A program made the translations under genes and the position numbers. 64,000 nt of DNA. Origin: an uncultured Muribaculaceae bacterium. GTDB lineage: Bacteria; Pseudomonadota; Alphaproteobacteria; Rs-D84. This document shows positions 1 to 50,993 of the stretch, one piece after another (positions within the stretch are counted from its first letter, which is position 1; each line of letters starts with the position of its first letter). The notes below the pieces were generated by a model, which saw only the letters and a program-made list of their open reading frames with translations, made no database searches and was not told where the DNA came from. Where the stretch lies: the NCBI GenBank assembly GCA_964587855.1, contig CAZPLT010000002.1, positions 6,676-70,675 of the forward strand, read 5' to 3'.

Positions 1-1874
1 ATAATGGCTTCCGGTGCTTCAGAGTAGTCTTTTTGTCCTTCCTGACGAGAATAAAAGTTTTTCCCAGAATTGAAAGAACCGCGAATACTTGGAATTGTAA
101 TCGCAAGACGTATGTTGCCGTCATCTGACATTTCAAAGTCAACGTCTATGTCCGCACCCGCATGAATAACCCCATCGTCAAAGTCCGTTCCGGATATCTT
201 CATAACCCCAACCGGACGATTGTCTGTCACCGGATGCGTGATGTCGCCTTCCCATATTTTAAAGTCCAACGATCCAACATCGCCAGCTCTCAGTGTGGTT
301 GCGGCTTTGAATTTTTTACGTCCGCGTTTTGGCAATATGTCGCCAGCATTTACAAGATAATCCATAACTTCCGATCCGCCGATTTTATCCAAAGCGGCAA
401 TGCCTACTGAGTGCGAAGCTGGAATAGAATCGATTGTCGCGGCTGTTCGCATTACTGATATTTTACTTGGATCTAGTGCAACACTTTCGCCGAATTCGTT
501 AAACAAAAATGCCTTGAAACTATTCTCGCCGAGTTTTGACAGCACCAGTTCTATTGTCGCACCATCTTTCAAGGCAACTTTCCCCGATGACCAACCGGAA
601 TCTATGGAATCTATTTGGAATTCAAACTTACCTTTGACTTTGTCCGGCAGGCGAATTATCAGTTTCGTTTTTACGTCTGGTGTTCTAGCGATAAAGTCAA
701 ATTGCACATTTACTGCACCCTGTGATTGTACCGATCCGCGCATATTTTTGCGCGCGCGATCTTGCGTGGACCATTCGATTGATTCCGCGAATATGCTTGC
801 GCCTTCGGCAACGGCAGTCATTGGATTGACATCCGTGTTTGCCGGAATACCCAGGGCCTGTGAAACTTTATCACGCAATGGTTTATAACAAGTCGGTCCG
901 CCGACAAAAACAATCCTGGCGACATCGCTTGTTTTCAATCCGGCTTTATCCAATGTTTCGTTTACTGCTTTGATTGTGTCGTCAATCTGATCGGCAATTA
1001 AATCGTTGTACATTTTTCGTGTAATGGAAATGTCGAGATAGATATCTTCGCCCTTATTGTCTTTCATGCGTGCTTCGGCTTCTGATAAACTGATCGTAGC
1101 ATCTTCTTTTGAAGACAAGGCAATCTTCGCCTGTTCAGCGGCCCATGATGCAAGTTGAACCAGTGGTTTGTATTTTGAATCATTCCAAAATTCGTCCGGC
1201 AAATCAAAGTTATCAGACAGCCATGGATATACAACGTTGTCAACCAGCAGGCGATCAAAGTCGCGGCCACCGCACATAGCAATTCCTCCATGGCTTTGCA
1301 AACTCACATGACCATTGATACTTTCTGCCACTGCTACGTCCAGTGTTCCACCGCCCAGGTCATACACTAGAAATATTCCGTCTTCCGGTCTTGTTCTCAT
1401 AACGCTCATGATCGCGGCGACTGGTTCTTGCATCAATGCCACCTTTCCAATGCCAGCCATATTTGCCGCTTGCAAGGTTGCGTCTTTTTGCATCTGATTA
1501 AATGCCGCAGGTGTGGTAATAACAACACCGATGTCTGGATCTGTTTGCATGTCTTCCGACAGGTAGTTGAACAATGTTTTTAGAATCTCGGCCGAGCATT
1601 CTTCCGGCGACATTGTTTTCCCAAGGTTCGGAATATTTATCGGAGTATTTGTTCCCACGAAACGCTTAAATCTTGAAGCGACATTTTCGGGATCCTTTGG
1701 TGTCTGATCATATGCCCGTTTCCCAATATATTTATTTCCGCGCTTGTCTATGTAAATCGCGGACGGGGTCACATCATAACCATCGGTGCTTTTCCAAATT
1801 TTAACTTGCTCGCCGTCATAAGAGCAAATTGCGCTGTTGGTTGTTCCAAGATCTATTCCTATAAAGTTTTTCAT
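1..1874 (-). CDS. Non-canonical Hsp70-family (actin-like ATPase) protein, 3-prime end truncated by window edge
   Basis: Minus-strand frame from ATG at 1874-1872 is open to position 1 with no stop. The ORF track does not list it because it runs off the edge. Translation starts MKNFIGIDLGTTNSAICSYDG and contains YDLGGGTLDVAV, which are Hsp70 nucleotide-binding motifs. The C-terminal part is not DnaK-like. The ATG overlaps the stop of the upstream ORF (ATGA). Confidence 0.8.
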   Translation of the reverse strand, partial: MKNFIGIDLGTTNSAICSYDGEQVKIWKSTDGYDVTPSAIYIDKRGNKYIGKRAYDQTPKDPENVASRFKRFVGTNTPINIPNLGKTMSPEECSAEILKTLFNYLSEDMQTDPDIGVVITTPAAFNQMQKDATLQAANMAGIGKVALMQEPVAAIMSVMRTRPEDGIFLVYDLGGGTLDVAVAESINGHVSLQSHGGIAMCGGRDFDRLLVDNVVYPWLSDNFDLPDEFWNDSKYKPLVQLASWAAEQAKIALSSKEDATISLSEAEARMKDNKGEDIYLDISITRKMYNDLIADQIDDTIKAVNETLDKAGLKTSDVARIVFVGGPTCYKPLRDKVSQALGIPANTDVNPMTAVAEGASIFAESIEWSTQDRARKNMRGSVQSQGAVNVQFDFIARTPDVKTKLIIRLPDKVKGKFEFQIDSIDSGWSSGKVALKDGATIELVLSKLGENSFKAFLFNEFGESVALDPSKISVMRTAATIDSIPASHSVGIAALDKIGGSEVMDYLVNAGDILPKRGRKKFKAATTLRAGDVGSLDFKIWEGDITHPVTDNRPVGVMKISGTDFDDGVIHAGADIDVDFEMSDDGNIRLAITIPSIRGSFNSGKNFYSRQEGQKDYSEAPEAI

Positions 1875-2308
1875 TTGTCTGCCTTTTTTAGTAAAACCGA
1901 ACCGGTTTTGATGATTTTTCCGTTTTGCATGATTACTGGTTCCAGGACCTGGTCAATAACCAATTCATCGTCCTTGTCAAAATCGCCAATGTTGATCGGT
2001 GTGACTGGCATTCCAACATCAAATGGCATCTTGTCCAGTGATGCTATTGTCATGCCAGTGCTGTATAAATATTCTATTGCTTTCTTGTTGAACCAGGCGA
2101 ATTGGCTATGGTATTTGTTTTGCTCGTCATAGTCCAATCGAGATATAAGTTTATCCAAGAGCTTTGGCAGTCGCCATATCTCTATCGCAAACTCAGCTAG
2201 TGCGGCATCTTTATCCGGCACAGCGATTGTTATCTCGTCTGGCGCAAGACTTGTATCAGGCGGGGCGCTTGTTGTGCTTGAATCCGTATCTTTGATCTCT
2301 TCAGTCAT
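1871..2308 (-). CDS. Hypothetical acidic 145-aa protein, translationally coupled to the Hsp70-like gene
   Basis: ORF from the track. Its stop TGA overlaps the Hsp70-like ATG (ATGA). No family recognised. Confidence 0.55.
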   Translation of the reverse strand: MTEEIKDTDSSTTSAPPDTSLAPDEITIAVPDKDAALAEFAIEIWRLPKLLDKLISRLDYDEQNKYHSQFAWFNKKAIEYLYSTGMTIASLDKMPFDVGMPVTPINIGDFDKDDELVIDQVLEPVIMQNGKIIKTGSVLLKKADK

Positions 2309-2409
2309 ATTGTTCCTTATTAATTATAATTTCAAACAATTATATTATATCATATCGGCGCTTAAAACTTCCATAACAAAACCAGATTTAATAGTTGAAT
2401 GACAATCAT

Positions 2410-2763
2410 TCATTTGTTCTTATTAAACCCAAAAAAATCATAGCCCGATACTTTATGGCCACATATTTCGGCGGCGATGGAGGATAGGGTTTTATACGTG
2501 CGCCCGTTGAACGTAAACGCAGAAGGTGCGGTCACATTAACCAGGAATTCACGCCCCTTGAATTTTTTCAACAGCTGAGTTCCCGGTTTTACGTGATATT
2601 TGTTTTTATTTGACCGTGCCGCGCATTCGGCGGGATTCTTTGCATACGCGTTCAGGCGGGTTATGTGCCGCGGTTCAATTTTTACACCGCACATGGCGCA
2701 TTGTTCAGCGTATTTTGCCACACGTTCGCGAAACCCGCGTACATATTGATTTTTGTCTGTCAT
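2410..2763 (-). CDS. Small Cys-containing (zinc-ribbon-like) protein adjacent to the serine recombinase; recombinase-associated accessory protein
   Basis: 117-aa ORF with CAMCG and ECAA Cys pairs. It is divergent from the recombinase gene. Family assignment is uncertain. Confidence 0.5.
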   Translation of the reverse strand: MTDKNQYVRGFRERVAKYAEQCAMCGVKIEPRHITRLNAYAKNPAECAARSNKNKYHVKPGTQLLKKFKGREFLVNVTAPSAFTFNGRTYKTLSSIAAEICGHKVSGYDFFGFNKNK

Positions 2764-2886
2764 TTTGACTCCTTTGACATCAACACTAACGCTTACAAAG
2801 GGCGCGAAGTCCAGTAAATTAGCGCAATTTTTATAATTAAAATATCTTGTCTTATTAACTTGACTAAGGGCGTACGTTAAGCATTA

Positions 2887-4527
2887 GTGTTGTCAGCCAA
2901 AGGGGTTATTATGAAATGTGCTGTATATGTGCGAAAGTCCAGTGAACGTGGGCTGGATCAAGAATTTAACAGCTTGGATAACCAAGAACAGGCGTGCCGT
3001 GCATACATCATGTCACAAACTTTTCAGGGATGGGAATATGTCAAAACATATTCGGATGCGGCCATATCCGGTGGCACAATGGCACGACCGGGACTACGCG
3101 AAATGCTGACCGATATACGTGATGGCAAAATCCAATGTGTACTGGTGTACAAAATTGATCGATTGAGCCGATCCATCTATGACTTTAAACGAATGATGAA
3201 AGAAGACTTTGAACCGCACGATTGTAATCTCGTCAGTATCACGCAATCATTCGATACATCAACCGCGATGGGCAAATTGACATTGAATATGCTGTTATCA
3301 TTCGCGGAATTTGAACGAGAGGTCGCATCGGAACGCGTTCGCGATAAAATGCGTGCTACCAAGGCCAAGGGTTTGTGGACCGGTGGAATGTTACCCCTTG
3401 GATACGATGTAGAATTTGGCAAACTGATTGTAAATACGGCAGAGGCCGCAACAGTGCGCGAAATATTCCAAACATACCTTGAATCCACATCGCTGTCCGA
3501 TTGTCGCGGGCGCCTTATCGACAAAGGTATACATGGTAAAACTTGGATGACCAAGAAAGGAAATCAGAAAGGCGGCAAGATCCTATGCGTGTCGGGAATT
3601 CAACGAATTTTAACAAATCCAGTTTATATCGGCAAAATGCCAAACCGCACAACCAAAGAGGTATTCGATGGTATTCACAAAGCTATCATGGATGAACGAT
3701 TGTTCAATGCCGTGCAAGAAAAACTGGCCAAAAATAACACGCACGGCGATGCGCCGTACACTCGCGGAACCGCGCTGTTGCATAACAAATTATATACAGC
3801 GGATGGCACGGCGTTCAAAAATAAAAAGGGTAACAAGGGACTCAAAAAATACCGATACTATCGCGCCGATAAAACATCACTGCCCGCAGGCGATATTGAA
3901 TCAATCATGACAGATACAATTAAAAGATTCCTGGATTCTGACATGGAATGTCTGTCGGAATCCGCTAAACTTGCATTCAAACAAACCGAATACAGTGACA
4001 CGATGATTCAACCAATGATTGAAAAGATTGTTTATAACCCTGGTAAGCTGACGATATTTATAAACATTGCTGACCTGTCATACCTGAGCCCATTCAAAAC
4101 CGATTGTATAAATCAGAACGCCGACCCGATGCCGATGTACATAACCGATGACGGTAAATACGCGGTCTTGGAAACGCCCGTTTATATAGCATCGCGAACA
4201 TGCATCAACCACCGATGCGATGGCGGCGAAGTATCCATACTGACCAAATCTGAAAACGCAACATTGTTAATCAAGGCGTTATCATACGGCTGGAAATACA
4301 AACAAGATTACGAAAACGGAACACCGATAACGAATATCGCAGAATCCGAAAAGCGCGACAAACGCACGATCTATAAATACCTGAACCTAGCATACTTATC
4401 CCCACGCATCATAAATAGCATCATGTCATCTGAAATTCCCGCCGACATAAACCTGCAAAACCTGTTCACCATCGCATCAAAATACGACACATTCCCAGAA
4501 CAAGAAAAGGTGTTTTATGGTCGATGA
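2887..4527 (+). mobile_element. Large serine recombinase (integrase) of an integrative element
   Basis: N-terminal resolvase catalytic domain (AVYVRKSSERG..SLDNQ, YKIDRLSRS) followed by a recombinase domain and a long C-terminal extension. It lies about 0.9 kb from the tRNA-Val 3-prime end. The true start may be the internal ATG at 2911. Confidence 0.85.
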
Positions 4528-5300
4528 TTGACCTGATTCAATCTTGTGTTATAATCCAGATTATGGAATTTATAATCGTTGTTATTTTTATACTGTTATC
4601 CGTACTGATTATTCGCAGTAATTCGCGTAATAAAAATCATGAATTTGTTTTTATAAACCGCGGGCGACATCACAGAAATCGCGAGTTGCTGGAAACGGTA
4701 ACGTCCGCAGATCGTGGCACTTGGGCTGAACGTGATTTAGTGCTGGATTTATTAAAAAATGATATCCCCGCCGGGGCAATTTTTCATGATTTATATATCC
4801 GAAAACGCAATGGAACATTCTCGCAAATAGATCTGGTTGTTGCGACCAAGGTTGGAATTATCGTTATTGAAGTAAAAGATTATGGTGGGTGGATTTTTGG
4901 AAATGCTCACAATACGCAATGGACACAAGGAATGCGTCGTGGGCAAAAGTTTCGTTTTTATAATCCGATAATGCAAAACAATAGGCATATTGAAGAACTG
5001 CGTAAACAATCTAAACAGTTCCAAAACTTGCCCATTTATTCTGTAATAGTTTTTCATGGTAGTTGCGAATTAAAAGATATTACTTTTGTACCAAAGGGAA
5101 CATTTGTTACCACTGCGCACAGGTTTTTGGACGTTATAAATACAATAACTAACGACTCTGAGCCCGCAAATTACACCGATAAAATGGAAGTTGTTAGAAT
5201 ACTGAAAGCCGCAGTTGAAAATGGTAATACGCCAGATATACAAGAACGACACGCCCAACAAGTTCAAGATATTCTCGGGAAAGACCGCGTTTTTGCATAG
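4524..5300 (+). CDS. NERD (nuclease-related domain) protein
   Basis: QIDLVVATKVGIIVIEVKDYGGWIFG matches the NERD core. The start overlaps the recombinase stop (ATGA). There is an N-terminal TM segment. Confidence 0.7.
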   Translation: MIDLIQSCVIIQIMEFIIVVIFILLSVLIIRSNSRNKNHEFVFINRGRHHRNRELLETVTSADRGTWAERDLVLDLLKNDIPAGAIFHDLYIRKRNGTFSQIDLVVATKVGIIVIEVKDYGGWIFGNAHNTQWTQGMRRGQKFRFYNPIMQNNRHIEELRKQSKQFQNLPIYSVIVFHGSCELKDITFVPKGTFVTTAHRFLDVINTITNDSEPANYTDKMEVVRILKAAVENGNTPDIQERHAQQVQDILGKDRVFA

Positions 5301-5392
5301 TAGTGACTATGCGAAAATAGCCATTGTATAGAATGTGGGATAGATTGGGTATATATGGCGGATATATCTGCTATACCATAGTCACAGCATTA

Positions 5393-5421
5393 AAAAATCC
5401 CGCGGAACTGCGGGATTTTTG
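5393..5421. terminator. Rho-independent terminator hairpin (bidirectional) between the NERD gene and tRNA-Val
   Basis: aaaaaatcccgcggaactgcgggattttt: a GC stem flanked by A and T runs. Confidence 0.7.
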
Positions 5422-5458
5422 CAAAGAAAAAGGCTGTTTATACAAACAGCCAGAGTCT

Positions 5459-5534
5459 TGGTGGATGATGAGGGACTCGAACCCCCGACCTACTGGATGT
5501 AAACCAGACGCTCTACCAACTGAGCTAATCATCC
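5459..5534 (-). tRNA. tRNA-Val (anticodon UAC)
   Basis: Cloverleaf on the minus strand: acceptor GGATGAT/ATCATCC, D-arm GCTCAGTTGGTAGAGC, anticodon loop TTTACAT, T-loop GGTTCGAGTCC, encoded CCA. Confidence 0.9.
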
Positions 5535-9315: not shown

Positions 9316-11819
9316 TTGCCAAAAAGGGATAATTGTGGGGATTCTTTATCTTTGGATCTGACAATAAAAACATCAGAAAGTTTTTCTTTGCCAACATGCC
9401 CCGAAAGATTTTCATGAGCATGTGTGTGTCCCCCATTGTTTTCCAATTTTTCCAAAATCATCGTTGCGCTGGACACAACGCTGTCAGGCATACCGGCCAT
9501 TTGCGCAACATGAATTCCATAAGAACGATTTGCAACGCCAGGCGCGATTTTATGCATAAATATAATTTCATCGTTGTGTTCTGCAACCTGGACATTCATA
9601 TTTTTCAAAGCATTCAATGGTATCTTGGTCAATTCATGATAATGCGTTGCGAACAAAGTTCTGGGCTGAATATTATTCAAAAATTCTAATACAGCCTGGG
9701 CAATAGCCATCCCGTCCCACGTTGCAGTCCCGCGCCCTATTTCATCAAAAATAATAAAGCTTTTATTTGTTGCACGATTAAGTATGTTTGCGGTTTCTTG
9801 CATTTCAACCATAAACGTGGATTGCCCCGCGGCCAAATTATCAGATGCACCAACGCGTGAAAATAACTGGTCACAAACACCAATAGTTGCAGATTTGGCC
9901 GGAACAAATGAACCCATATGTGCTAAAATCGCTATTAATGCATTTTGTCGCAAGTATGTTGATTTCCCCGCCATATTTGGCCCCGTCAGCAATGCGATTT
10001 TTTTATCATCTAAATTGCAATCATTTTGAACAAACTGATTACCAGATTTTTTTAATATGCTTTCTATAACTGGATGACGACCAGCAATAATTTCAAATTC
10101 ATCACCATTGGTTATAGTTGGACGGACCCAATTATATTCTGCAGCCGCAGCTGTTAATGCCATCCATACATCTGTTTCGGCCAGTAAGTCCGCGGTTTGT
10201 AATAATTCATCAGAAATATTGCGAATTTTTTCAATCAATTTTGAAATAATTTCAGATTCGATTGCTGCAGCTTTATCGGCTGCGCCACGAACATCATTAT
10301 CCAAGTCAATCAGGCGCGCCGTTGTAAATCGCATATTGTTTGCCATGGTCTGACGATGAATAAATCCAGATGTTGGGTTCATTAAGGCGTCCGCACGAGT
10401 ATTTGGAATTTCTATATGATAACCCAATATATTATTAAATTTTATTTTAAGAATATTGATACCGGTTTGTTGGATATACTCTGCCTGCAATACTGCGATG
10501 GTTTCTTTTGCACCATGTGCCATTTGTCGCATATTATCAAGCGCACCATCAAATCCATCCGCAATTATTTCGCCATCGCGGAAAAATGCCGGCATGTTAT
10601 TTGATAATGCATTGCGAAGTTCCAAAGCAAACGAATCAAAAGTTTTAATTTCTTTGAATTTAGCACTTAAATCTAGATCCAGCTTTTCCCCAACAGATTT
10701 TATAGTTGGTAAAGAATTCAGAAAATCAGATGTTGCGCGTAAATCACGTGGTGTACCGCGACCAGTAATCAAACGTGTTATTGCACGCCCAGCATCTGGC
10801 AATTTTGATAATTCGTTGCCCATAGATTTAAAAACGTTTGTATTTAATAACAGATGTGCGATGTGTTCCTGTCTGCGGCGAATTTCACCAACATCGCCAG
10901 ACAATTGCCGTAAAAATCCACGCAGTTTTCGCGCGCCGGCCGCCGTGTGTGTTTTATCCAATATATCTAATAAACAAGCACCACCATCGTTTAATACAGA
11001 ATCAATTTCCAAACTTTTCCAAGATGTGGAATCAACCAATAATTGTTTGCCCGCACCAAAACGATAAGGTGTTCGGAACGCAACATTTGTCCCGCGCTGG
11101 GTATTATTTAAATAAGCTGCTAATAATTTATCAGCAAAAGTTGGTATGCCAAAAATAGGTAAGATTTTTGATGTAATTGTATCAATATCAGCCCTGGAAT
11201 ATAATTTTTTGTATACAGGTGTTGTAGGGAACGATTCGCGTATACGCATTATTTCTGGCGTTTCGGCCAAATCTTCGGGATAAATAATTTCGGCTGGGGA
11301 AATCTTGTAAATATCATCAAAAATGTTTGTAGTTTGTCCTATAAAAAATTCACCAGTTGAAATATCGCAGCCAGAAAAATTATATCCAGATATTTCCGAT
11401 GGTGCGACAGCGACCAAAAAATTAGATTTTTTCGGACTTAGTAAATTATCATCGGTTAATGTTCCGGCGGTAATAACACGAACGATTTTTCGTTCTATTT
11501 GTTTATGTCCGCGGGCTTTTGCTTCGTCCGGAGTTTCCATTTGTTCAGCCAGTGCGACATTGGTGCCGGATTTTACCAAACGGGCAAAATAGTTATCTGC
11601 CGCATGCCATGGAATTCCGCACATAGGAATATCACTGCCGCGTTCATCAGTTCCACGATGAGTTAAAACCAAATCTAAAATTTTGCTGACTATGCGGGCG
11701 TCGTTAAAAAAAGCCTCGTAAAAATCGCCCAACCGAAACAACAAAACAGCATCTGGATTTTCAGCCTTCATATCCAGATATTGTTTCATAATCGGTGAAA
11801 GGGTTAATTTTTCAGCCAT
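9312..11819 (-). CDS. mutS: DNA mismatch repair protein MutS
   Basis: 835 aa. N-terminal TPIMKQYLDMK..FYEAFF mismatch-binding motif and Walker A GPNMAGKST. Confidence 0.95.
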   Translation of the reverse strand: MAEKLTLSPIMKQYLDMKAENPDAVLLFRLGDFYEAFFNDARIVSKILDLVLTHRGTDERGSDIPMCGIPWHAADNYFARLVKSGTNVALAEQMETPDEAKARGHKQIERKIVRVITAGTLTDDNLLSPKKSNFLVAVAPSEISGYNFSGCDISTGEFFIGQTTNIFDDIYKISPAEIIYPEDLAETPEIMRIRESFPTTPVYKKLYSRADIDTITSKILPIFGIPTFADKLLAAYLNNTQRGTNVAFRTPYRFGAGKQLLVDSTSWKSLEIDSVLNDGGACLLDILDKTHTAAGARKLRGFLRQLSGDVGEIRRRQEHIAHLLLNTNVFKSMGNELSKLPDAGRAITRLITGRGTPRDLRATSDFLNSLPTIKSVGEKLDLDLSAKFKEIKTFDSFALELRNALSNNMPAFFRDGEIIADGFDGALDNMRQMAHGAKETIAVLQAEYIQQTGINILKIKFNNILGYHIEIPNTRADALMNPTSGFIHRQTMANNMRFTTARLIDLDNDVRGAADKAAAIESEIISKLIEKIRNISDELLQTADLLAETDVWMALTAAAAEYNWVRPTITNGDEFEIIAGRHPVIESILKKSGNQFVQNDCNLDDKKIALLTGPNMAGKSTYLRQNALIAILAHMGSFVPAKSATIGVCDQLFSRVGASDNLAAGQSTFMVEMQETANILNRATNKSFIIFDEIGRGTATWDGMAIAQAVLEFLNNIQPRTLFATHYHELTKIPLNALKNMNVQVAEHNDEIIFMHKIAPGVANRSYGIHVAQMAGMPDSVVSSATMILEKLENNGGHTHAHENLSGHVGKEKLSDVFIVRSKDKESPQLSLFGK

Positions 11820-27599: not shown

Positions 27600-27677
27600 G
27601 GACGCGTAGCTCAGTTGGTTAGAGTATCTCCTTGACATGGAGGGGGTCGGAAGTTCGAGTCTTCTCGCGTCCACCAG
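27600..27677 (+). tRNA. tRNA-Val (anticodon GAC)
   Basis: GGACGCGTAGCTCAGTTGGTTAGAG..CCTTGACATGG..GGTTCGAGTC..CGCGTCCACCA. It closely resembles canonical bacterial tRNA-Val(GAC). Confidence 0.9.
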
Positions 27678-50580: not shown

Positions 50581-50655
50581 TGGCAGTCCCAACGGGAATC
50601 GAACCCGTGTTTTCAGAATGAGAATCTGGCGTCCTGACCGCTAGACGATGGGACC
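50581..50655 (-). tRNA. tRNA-Glu-like, apparent anticodon CUC, with C27-A43 mismatch in the anticodon stem
   Basis: Minus-strand cloverleaf GGTCCCATCGTCTAGCGGTCAGGAC..anticodon loop TTCTCAT..GGGTTCGATTCCCGTTGGGACTGCCA. The D-arm is tRNA-Glu-like. Confidence 0.7.
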
Positions 50656-50919: not shown

Positions 50920-50993
50920 TGGTTGGGCCACACGGATTCGAACCGCGATAAAGAGAACCAAAATCTCTTGTCCTACCGTTAGACGACGCCCCA
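50920..50993 (-). tRNA. tRNA-Gln (anticodon UUG)
   Basis: Minus-strand TGGGGCGTCGTCTAACGGTAGGAC..stem AGAGA/TCTCT with loop TTTTGGT..GGTTCGAATCC..TGGCCCA A CCA. U1-A72 is typical of bacterial tRNA-Gln. There is one G-G mismatch in the acceptor stem. Confidence 0.75.

Follow-up and report, generated by a model that had tools for sequence, protein, structure and literature searches.

The window analyzed here is a stretch of 64,000 nucleotides from contig CAZPLT010000002.1, which opens with a block of accessory genes that ends at a tRNA-Val(UAC) gene. Within this block, a large serine recombinase (LSR) is encoded on the forward strand (2887-4527), with Pfam matches to the Resolvase (3.1e-37) and Recombinase (PF07508; 5.5e-14, residues 185-283) domains. 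Upstream of it, on the reverse strand, are genes for a DUF2924 protein of 117 amino acids (2763-2410; Pfam DUF2924, 6.4e-19), a protein of 145 amino acids that is the first of a gene cassette (2308-1871), and an Hsp70-like ATPase (1874 to beyond position 1; Pfam HSP70, 5.8e-60), whose start overlaps the stop of the 145-amino-acid gene and whose first 624 codons fit in the window before its left edge cuts the gene. Downstream on the forward strand, a gene for a NERD-domain protein of 258 amino acids (4524-5300; Pfam NERD, 6.3e-27) starts in overlap with the LSR stop and occupies a second cargo slot, between the LSR and the tRNA. The tRNA-Val(UAC) gene (5459-5534, reverse strand; found with ARAGORN, Rfam tRNA score 70.8 bits) is intact and is the target gene, or bacterial attachment site (attB). 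Its 3' end faces the block, and the genes ybaB, pnp, rpsO and truB then follow. A preliminary description of the window had listed this gene content and the return of the core genome beyond the tRNA. Both agree with the Pfam matches and coordinates, except that its "zinc-ribbon small protein" is the DUF2924 protein, in which the cysteines, including a CxxC pair, are not conserved among homologues.

The limits of the block were determined using metagenome contigs (Logan assemblies) found by exact-protein look-up. Three of these (L006, L007, L010), which encode an identical YbaB, match the window at 99.8-100% identity over 10.4 kb (15845 to 5459). In each case the match ends exactly at 5459, the final base of tRNA-Val(UAC), and is followed by GATATAAAACACTCCGCAAGGGGTGTTTTTT, the native terminator, and then by a gene for a protein of 120 amino acids; no island is present. 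Two other contigs carry the block and run beyond the window's left edge, namely L001 (9,668 bp; 97% identity to window 1-5488) and L002 (94% identity over the overlapping region, window 1-3366). The far junction in L002 reads ...CAGATTACCGCCCCACCA|GATATAAAACACTCCGCAAGGGGTG, where GATATAAAACACTCCGCAAGGGGTG is the post-tRNA sequence of the empty sites, and the flank beyond it is 96% identical to the empty-site flank over 584 bp, into the same 120-amino-acid gene. The native hairpin of the empty sites (CACTCCGCAAGGGGTG followed by a T-run) differs from the hairpin found at the same position in the island (hairpin 1, below), and is found again past the island's far end in carriers. Because the empty sites run from the tRNA into the native flank, and the same flank resumes past the far end, the island is a precise insertion after the tRNA CCA, 9,614 bp in length as measured in L001.

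On the tRNA side, the boundary lies at 5458|5459, so that the island abuts the last tRNA base rather than stopping about 150 bp short of it as first described. The comparison of filled and empty alleles shows the insertion to be precise and conservative, with exact junctions and a 6-bp core in common. This core, CCACCA (5459-5464, reverse strand), represents the last six nucleotides of tRNA-Val and is the sole sequence repeated at both junctions. The preliminary description had expected a direct repeat of the tRNA-Val 3' segment at the far attachment site; no such long copy exists, as a 26-nt tRNA 3' segment has no second match in L001 or L002 at up to 7 mismatches, apart from the tRNA itself. 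Since CCACCA is the only common sequence, strand exchange is placed within it and the tRNA stays intact. Insertion into the 3' part of a tRNA gene that is left intact is a defining trait of tRNA islands, and the shortness of the repeat fits a serine rather than a tyrosine recombinase. All seven island genes were scanned for tyrosine integrases (Phage_integrase family) and none matches. With no tyrosine integrase and only CCACCA repeated, the island therefore does not belong with P4/Islander-type elements, which are recognized by an integrase and a long repeat. The corresponding phage-type attachment site (attP) was reconstructed as ...CAGATTACCGCCCCACCA|AGACTCTGGCTGTTTG....

We place at about 0.8 the probability that window 1-5458 is the right-hand 5.5 kb of a ~9.6-kb integrative island, located directly after the encoded CCA of tRNA-Val(UAC) and inserted by its own LSR. 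The proposal of an integrative element at this tRNA end that continues past the window was made in the preliminary description and is borne out by these contigs: near-identical strains, instead of carrying the same genes in place, lack the block, with identity stopping at the 3'-terminal base of the tRNA, and L001 and L002 supply the left part and a far junction that joins the native flank. The deviation in base composition suggested as a check is also present. The island is the highest-GC part of the window: positions 1-5458 have a GC fraction of 0.428 and the remainder 0.373, and 5.4-kb stretches elsewhere reach 0.395 at most.

Carriers of the island are represented in samples SRR10769903 and SRR8925824. 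Past the tRNA-side junction contig L001 continues for 30 nt (positions 1-30), and past the far junction for 24 nt (positions 9645-9668), or 30 nt when the shared 6-nt core is included. We take Logan assemblies to be built with k=31, in which case branching of the assembly graph at both junctions would give this end pattern, a hint that sample SRR10769903 contains filled alleles alongside empty or excised ones. The other tRNA genes of the window, Val(gac) (27600-27676), Glu(ctc) (50581-50655) and Gln(ttg) (50920-50993), have no recombinase homologue, TTCCCTG cluster (a repeat described below) or GC shift nearby and appear to be unoccupied.

The serine recombinase and its relatives

The LSR comprises 546 amino acids from a GTG start, or 538 from the ATG at 2911 that is called as the start on relatives' contigs. 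Residues Y14, R16, S18, D91, R92 and R95 of its catalytic domain are invariant in eight homologues. The protein matches the catalytic domain of TP901-1 integrase (3.3e-29), aligns to the recombinase domain of A118 integrase and to SPbeta SprA/YokA, and has an integrase family as its best PHROG match (4.8e-90). We infer that it is the island's integrase. Its C-terminal part is less conventional: there is no match to the Pfam family Zn_ribbon_recom, no cysteine is conserved past residue 206 among the eight homologues, and residues 325-546 have no sequence match to any solved LSR. Given that no zinc-ribbon motif is detectable, the protein may recognize DNA differently from the studied LSRs. In the corresponding part of the window (3740-4527, LSR residues ~285-546), the clade has no conserved cysteines and the sequence reads LLHNKLYTADGTAF...YRYYRA; by eye, we presume this to be where the CxxC motifs of typical LSRs would be expected. 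Read in this way, the C-terminus may be a cysteine-less version of the zinc-ribbon domain.

One genome scan and one metagenome scan yielded 88 loci with LSR relatives at 31-77% identity, mostly from uncultured gut, rumen and digester Alphaproteobacteria as judged from record titles. Members of this clade are almost always found in convergent arrangement with a tRNA gene, the two 3' ends facing each other. There are 39 tRNA genes within 4 kb downstream of an LSR gene, and all 39 are on the opposite strand with their 3' end facing that of the LSR; none of the 39 is on the LSR's strand, and none was found in 234 kb of sequence upstream of the LSRs. The pattern occurs in 22 of the 33 loci for which 4 kb or more of downstream sequence is available. 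The tRNAs used belong to at least 11 isoacceptors: Val(tac), Val(cac), Ser(tga), Ser(gga), Pro(tgg), Pro(cgg), Ala(cgc), Ala(ggc), Lys(ctt), Met(cat) and Tyr(gta). In each of the 13 elements that were mapped, the far arm ends in 6-8 nt of the element's own tRNA terminus, which reads CCACCA for Val and Lys targets, CCGCCA for Ser and CCGACCA for Pro. The LSR is a signature gene of variable-cargo elements and prophages at tRNA 3' ends, and not a conserved chromosomal resolvase, the alternative that the preliminary description had named as fatal to its proposal.

These distributions also bear on whether the LSR acts on the island's ends at all. It could instead be a local invertase or resolvase working on the inverted repeat next to the NERD gene (5303-5311 / 5377-5385) or on the TTCCCTG repeats, with the island inserted by another agent such as a lost tyrosine integrase or a helper. 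Invertases and resolvases that work with accessory sites are indeed known among serine recombinases, the inverted repeat shows both conservation and covariation, and the absence of a recognizable zinc-ribbon motif would suit such an enzyme. However, a protein of 546 amino acids with a Recombinase domain, an integrase as its best PHROG match and alignments to the TP901-1, A118 and SPbeta integrases has the features of an integrase. The 6-bp core is far shorter than the 15 nt or more that are usual in tRNA islands of tyrosine integrases, the orientation and distance of the tRNA 3' end track the LSR gene across differing cargo (39/39 tRNAs), and the 83-bp block bounded by the inverted repeat is never found in the alternative orientation among relatives. 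We therefore regard a purely local role as very improbable, and retain the LSR as the likely enzyme of insertion.

The DUF2924 gene accompanies the recombinase through much of the clade. Within the 4.5 kb upstream of the LSR gene, it was detected in 16/17 loci with LSR identities of 55% or more and in 25/32 loci with 39-55%. The C-terminus of the protein is weakly RAMA-like (0.005). It probably assists the LSR, for which it is a candidate accessory, DNA-binding or directionality factor.

Some relatives show additional features at their tRNA genes. Several related loci (L015 at ~1108, L023 at ~3130, L025 at ~1606, L032 at ~130 and L017 at ~235, in locus coordinates) have an extra copy of 13-19 nt of the tRNA 3' end, 180-260 bp past the far arm. 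In L023, a piece of ~170 bp that ends in a tRNA 3'-end copy separates the intact tRNA-Pro from the LSR element; in L017 this piece is located at the far end. The extra copies resemble scars left by elements that had previously accumulated at one tRNA gene by tandem accretion. Two end elements are in unexpected positions, namely the 83-bp block of L026 (at 13324, with the nearest tRNA 6.9 kb further) and a TTCCCTG pair of L046 (at 12597, downstream of the LSR), which may reflect tandem or nested elements. In addition, some contigs with this alphaproteobacterial-type element are labelled Muribaculaceae or Bacteroides fragilis (L019, which is OZ246409.1, a "chromosome" of 716,531 bp; L017; L018; L020). 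They may be mis-binned contigs of metagenome-assembled genomes or mislabelled small genomes.

Conserved non-coding sequence at the junctions

Between the NERD gene and the tRNA lies a conserved block of 83 bp (5303-5385). It is bounded by the inverted repeat GTGACTATG (5303-5311) and CATAGTCAC (5377-5385), which is at least 74 bp from the junction. The preliminary description had reported a 10-bp inverted repeat here. The repeat is real, conserved and covarying, yet its arms are 9 bp, the right arm lies 10 bp away from the position given, and the left arm reads aGTGACTATG. Covariation is evident in the arm pairs GACTAT/ATAGTC, GACTC/GAGTC and GACTT/AAGTC. The block was identified in 13 sequences (11 relatives, the window and L001), with a length of 81-83 bp (71 bp in L018), and is in the same place in every relative with an LSR identity of at least 60%. 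In 10 of the 13 sequences, 62-75 bp separate the end of the block from a tRNA, with the exceptions named being L017 (where the contig contains no tRNA), L018, L023 and L026. On the forward strand, which is that of the LSR, the left arm contains a -35-like TTGACT, followed after 18 nt by a -10-like TATA(G/C)A. The block may be an operator, a promoter or an accessory recombination site.

Two hairpins follow. Hairpin 2 (5393-5420) has a perfect 11-bp stem, AAAAATCCCGC / GCGGGATTTTT, flanked on each side by A/T runs. It resembles a terminator whichever way it is read, and its CCCGC...GCGGG core is kept among relatives. A small RNA extending from the promoter-like left arm to hairpin 2 was considered and rejected: Rfam gave nothing above threshold, RNAalifold on 10 homologues recovered the hairpin-2 stem only, and several of these homologues have no T-run on the small-RNA strand at hairpin 2. 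Hairpin 1 (5432-5451, reverse strand) adjoins the junction in the element-side arm. It has an 8-bp stem, GGCTGTTT/AAACAGCC, and a 4-nt loop, followed on the tRNA strand by the T-run TTTTTCTTT, and thus reads as an intrinsic terminator. Hairpin 1 is a replacement terminator supplied by the island to tRNA-Val, and it may overlap the element-side half-site. It corresponds to the "perfect 20-bp palindrome" placed at 5433-5452 in the preliminary description; the hairpin stands, at 5432-5451, as a terminator-like stem and loop instead of an unbroken palindrome. That description also took the palindrome and the inverted repeat for the sites bound by the recombinase, a role that suits neither of them well, since the former reads as a replacement terminator and the latter is too far away for a minimal attachment site.

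The far side of the island has its own repeats. Two tandem copies of TTCCCTG(T/A), spaced 10-11 bp apart, are located at about -58 to -90 from the junction, and a second TTCCCTG pair, with a spacing of 21-22 bp, is found at about -150 to -234 and has an inverted copy close to it. The arrangement recurs in elements with quite different cargo, and a more distant member has TTCCCAT. Elements with LSR identities of at least 60% additionally share an A-ATTAC motif at -17..-11 of the far arm. As the TTCCCTG repeats are located 3' of the cargo genes, they are not promoters of these genes. Studied serine integrases need ~50 bp, and the TTCCCTG repeats and the 83-bp block fall outside that span. It seems probable that the repeats, hairpins and 83-bp block that flank the attachment site are accessory or regulatory sites, some of which the DUF2924 protein may bind.

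A mechanism can be proposed on this basis. The LSR would catalyze conservative exchange between attP and attB inside the 6-bp CCACCA, and the product of the adjacent DUF2924 gene would assist it as a directionality factor or DNA-binding partner. The TTCCCTG pairs and A-ATTAC motif of the far side, together with the hairpins and 83-bp block of the tRNA side, would act as accessory sites. In the filled sites the native terminator is displaced to the far junction, and hairpin 1 of the island takes its place directly behind the tRNA.

Cargo and mode of spread

The preliminary description recognized an Hsp70-like module of two genes. Both genes are present, but they belong to a cassette of four, two of which lie beyond the window edge. 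In L001 and L002, the cassette encodes the 145-amino-acid protein, the Hsp70-like protein (831 amino acids), an AAA ATPase (466 amino acids) and a protein of 596 amino acids, and is followed by the non-coding end region. As read from L001, the Hsp70-like protein has a nucleotide-binding domain, a beta-rich region and a helical C-terminus. Its Pfam match covers the nucleotide-binding domain only (residues 5-364; profile positions 2-373 of 599), and its scores of ~200 bits against the DnaK/HscA equivalogs are well below the NCBIfam cut-offs of 620-1019. The ATPase motifs DLGTT, EP.AA and DLGGGT, read in the sequence, look intact. The canonical Hsp70 machine consists of a full-length Hsp70 with GrpE and a J-domain co-chaperone bearing the HPD motif, and the cassette does not have this composition; GrpE-like and J-like identities were considered for its two unassigned proteins and failed the tests.

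The partner proteins are unusual. The 145-amino-acid protein has no family match in Pfam, PADLOC, PHROG or NCBIfam and only 10 homologue clusters among 5.8 billion proteins; its AlphaFold2 model (predicted local distance difference test score, pLDDT, 68) contains two long helices and a small beta domain and has no Foldseek match. The 596-amino-acid protein has ~60 homologue clusters in the same collection, all unannotated and without Pfam domains. In a confident model (pLDDT 90.5), one half of the protein is helical, followed by a beta domain and by a hydrophobic helix at the C-terminus. Structural comparison returned only generic matches, which are helical-repeat and, for the beta domain, PH/FERM-like. 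The third partner is a classical AAA protein with Walker motifs that read as intact and a match to IetA in PADLOC (6e-25). In the second slot, the NERD protein has a hydrophobic N-terminal segment and matches only the NERD regions of PglW and MkoA in PADLOC. A copy with 81% identity occupies the same position in L021.

The surroundings of the cassette elsewhere suggest a role in conflict. The four-gene order is kept on metagenome contigs of other lineages, one of them labelled Desulfococcus, where type I restriction-modification, zeta-toxin and DUF932 genes are neighbours. On two contigs (L106, 5762-11743; L107, 2938-8919) the cassette lies in a P2-like prophage, immediately beyond the genes for tail components (gpD, gpU, tape measure, tube and sheath), and is flanked by genes for EcoRI-type methylases and a PLD-family protein. 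We take this site to resemble the variable anti-phage hotspot of P2-like phages. In addition, the slot filled by the cassette is occupied in sibling islands by restriction-modification, KAP or PIN genes. We infer an anti-phage or conflict system, and the island is thus likely to carry anti-virus genes.

The siblings demonstrate that the chassis of LSR, DUF2924 and attachment-site architecture carries interchangeable cargo in two slots. L016 encodes an AlwI-type restriction enzyme with two Dam-class methylases and a KAP NTPase (PADLOC PDC-S20), while L025 encodes a HaeIII restriction enzyme with a C5 methylase, an SMC/AAA_21 ATPase and a KAP NTPase. A split type IIG restriction-modification system is present in L023, a TPR-PIN protein in both L015 and L029 (with a Cas4/DUF2779 nuclease shown for L015), and a 1,630-amino-acid M48-peptidase protein in L027. 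The restriction-modification systems of the siblings are of types II, IIS and IIG. At least six elements are compact (8-14 kb), with defence-type cargo and no phage genes. The cargo of L018, L021, L026, L029 and L032 is phage-like, comprising ParB-methylase, DUF5681 and large-terminase genes.

This last group raises the question of whether the island is a decayed, or "grounded", prophage that retained its integrase end and some moron genes and is now immobile, in which case the empty alleles would reflect an old segregating insertion or a one-off precise deletion. Besides the terminase-bearing siblings with LSR and DUF2924, one LSR relative is located in a 37.5-kb viral contig of IMG/VR, and the gene scans of the island found no replication, packaging or transfer genes. 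Decay is hard to reconcile with the state of the element, in which both junctions are exact and the recombinase, DUF2924 gene and all conserved elements flanking the attachment site are intact, or with the 99.8-100% identity between the flanks of carriers and non-carriers. Moreover, the same gene order (~9.5 kb) is found in L019 at a different tRNA gene, tRNA-Lys(CUU), with 62% identity for the LSR and 64-77% for the cargo. The compact island is therefore a long-lived, evolving entity and not a chance deletion product, a conclusion in line with the six or more compact elements that have defence-type cargo and no phage genes. On balance, we consider a prophage remnant unlikely.

The absence of transfer genes is also compatible with a phage satellite or hitch-hiker. 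Such an element would integrate by means of its own LSR and be excised, packaged and transferred by helper prophages that share its attachment sites and LSR module, and the repeats at its far end would serve as signals for packaging or replication instead of arm sites for recombination. Mini-islands do have one integration module and the same conserved ends in common with full prophage-like elements, and the spacings of 10-11 and 21-22 bp are iteron-like. Yet the island has no capsid, terminase-small, primase or Rep gene, no helper was identified, and the viral collection IMG/VR holds no close copy of the island. We view this explanation as doubtful, if somewhat less so than a prophage remnant. 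With respect to integration it agrees with an LSR-driven island, and differs only on dissemination.

A broader reading joins these elements. In this reading, the LSR and DUF2924 would represent an unrecognized lineage of serine integrases specific to tRNA 3' ends, which has been retargeted among at least 11 isoacceptors by means of a co-evolving 6-8-nt mimic. Its attP would be complex, with DUF2924 bound to the TTCCCTG arms, in contrast to the simple sites of the serine integrases that serve in genome engineering, and the Hsp70-like/AAA cassette would be a new anti-phage system based on a chaperone-type ATPase. As a whole, this is a tentative proposal that we judge possible without favouring it.

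Several observations weigh against the integrative island as interpreted here and against parts of the wider proposal, in addition to the cysteine-less C-terminus of the LSR. The left junction of the window's own island is deduced from L001 and L002, which are 94-97% identical to it. The role of the LSR is drawn from association, and in 11 of the 33 relatives with sufficient downstream sequence the first 4 kb contain no tRNA. A search of IMG/VR for the attP junction of an excised circle gave no matches; two short records labelled "Bacteriophage sp.", which contain related genes for an LSR and a DUF2924 protein, have no terminal overlap and no tRNA, and are uninformative about circular forms. 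A dyad-symmetry scan of the reconstructed attP and attB in five elements gave no consistent centre for the crossover dinucleotide. The lack of replication, packaging and transfer genes among the island's scanned genes leaves its route between cells without an obvious agent, and the roles given to DUF2924 and to the repeats are conjectural. With regard to the cargo, the defence assignment is based on genomic neighbourhood. In PADLOC 2.0 the Hsp70-like, 145-amino-acid and 596-amino-acid proteins have no significant match, only the AAA protein matches, and no catalogued system is complete.

Relationship to known systems

The locus is of interest for several reasons. Its insertion is mapped exactly by comparison of filled with empty alleles from near-identical strains, and it belongs to a clade that has a consistent rule. 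For recombinase biology and genome engineering, it points to natural serine integrases with predictable and universally conserved targets, the 3' ends of tRNA genes, and with an apparent partner protein and arm-like sites, both of which are unusual for serine integrases. In siblings, known defence systems occupy the slot marked by the chassis, which makes its unassigned cargo a source of good candidates for testing. The rare Hsp70-like/AAA cassette and the membrane-anchored NERD protein are such phage-defence candidates.

Studied LSRs (phiC31, Bxb1, A118, TP901-1, SPbeta SprA and the Ccr recombinases of SCCmec) have protein-coding or intergenic targets and simple attachment sites of ~40-50 bp. 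The present element resembles theirs in combining resolvase-type catalytic and Recombinase domains, in having the LSR gene at one end, and in its conservative and precise insertion with little sequence common to the junctions (6 bp). It differs in the location of its clade at the very 3' terminus of tRNA genes, in the lack of detectable zinc-ribbon cysteines, in the almost constant association with DUF2924 and in having conserved repeats 60-230 bp from the junction on both sides.

Islands in tRNA genes are textbook territory of tyrosine integrases. In a survey of integrative elements, tRNA or tmRNA genes were the targets of 44.5% of tyrosine-integrase elements, compared with 14 of 297 serine-integrase elements; serine integrases were found at tRNA genes only rarely, and proof was called for (PMC7192596). 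The island described here is similar to the tyrosine-integrase tRNA islands recovered by Islander and TIGER (PMC7192596) in its 3' insertion, the preservation of the tRNA, the position of the integrase near the tRNA end and its accessory or defence cargo. Unlike them, it has no tyrosine integrase, and its repeat is 6 bp rather than a tRNA fragment of 15-50 nt.

Precedents for serine recombinases on tRNA-associated elements do exist. Paracoccus phage vB_PamS_Pami6 encodes a serine recombinase, with tRNA-Met as the predicted site (PMC6536676). Among 937 Prochlorococcus tycheposons and related cryptic elements, a large serine recombinase is present in 27 (bioRxiv 10.1101/2020.12.28.424599). The likeness considered here between both and the present element is one of tRNA association; Pami6 is not among the matches listed for the LSR query (25 of 187 phage records). 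Tycheposons are likewise compact, cargo-carrying and tRNA-targeted, but mostly have tyrosine recombinases and replication genes. Among the matches listed in the phage collection, the nearest named relative of the LSR is the recombinase of Wolbachia phage WO, with 30% identity over 93-94% of the protein. WO is not known to integrate at tRNA ends. In phage WO, too, a large serine recombinase lies beside a DUF2924 gene (PMC11376236). The two elements share this pairing and an alphaproteobacterial host, whereas WO is a full prophage and the present element a 9.6-kb cargo island without phage genes.

The cassette, in turn, is most readily compared with CoCoNuT type IV restriction systems, in which the ATPase motifs of the Hsp70-like CnuD proteins are described as degenerate (PMC11090510), and with IetAS. 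As in these systems, an Hsp70-like ATPase is combined with an AAA-type NTPase in an apparent defence context, and the AAA protein matches IetA. Unlike them, the cassette has no McrB-type GTPase, McrC, HEPN or IetS protease, the motifs of its Hsp70-like protein look intact, and its 145- and 596-amino-acid partners have no known relatives. Overall, a serine recombinase at tRNA genes is of a known kind, whereas the clade-wide rule, the pairing with DUF2924, the extended attachment-site architecture and the cargo appear to be new.

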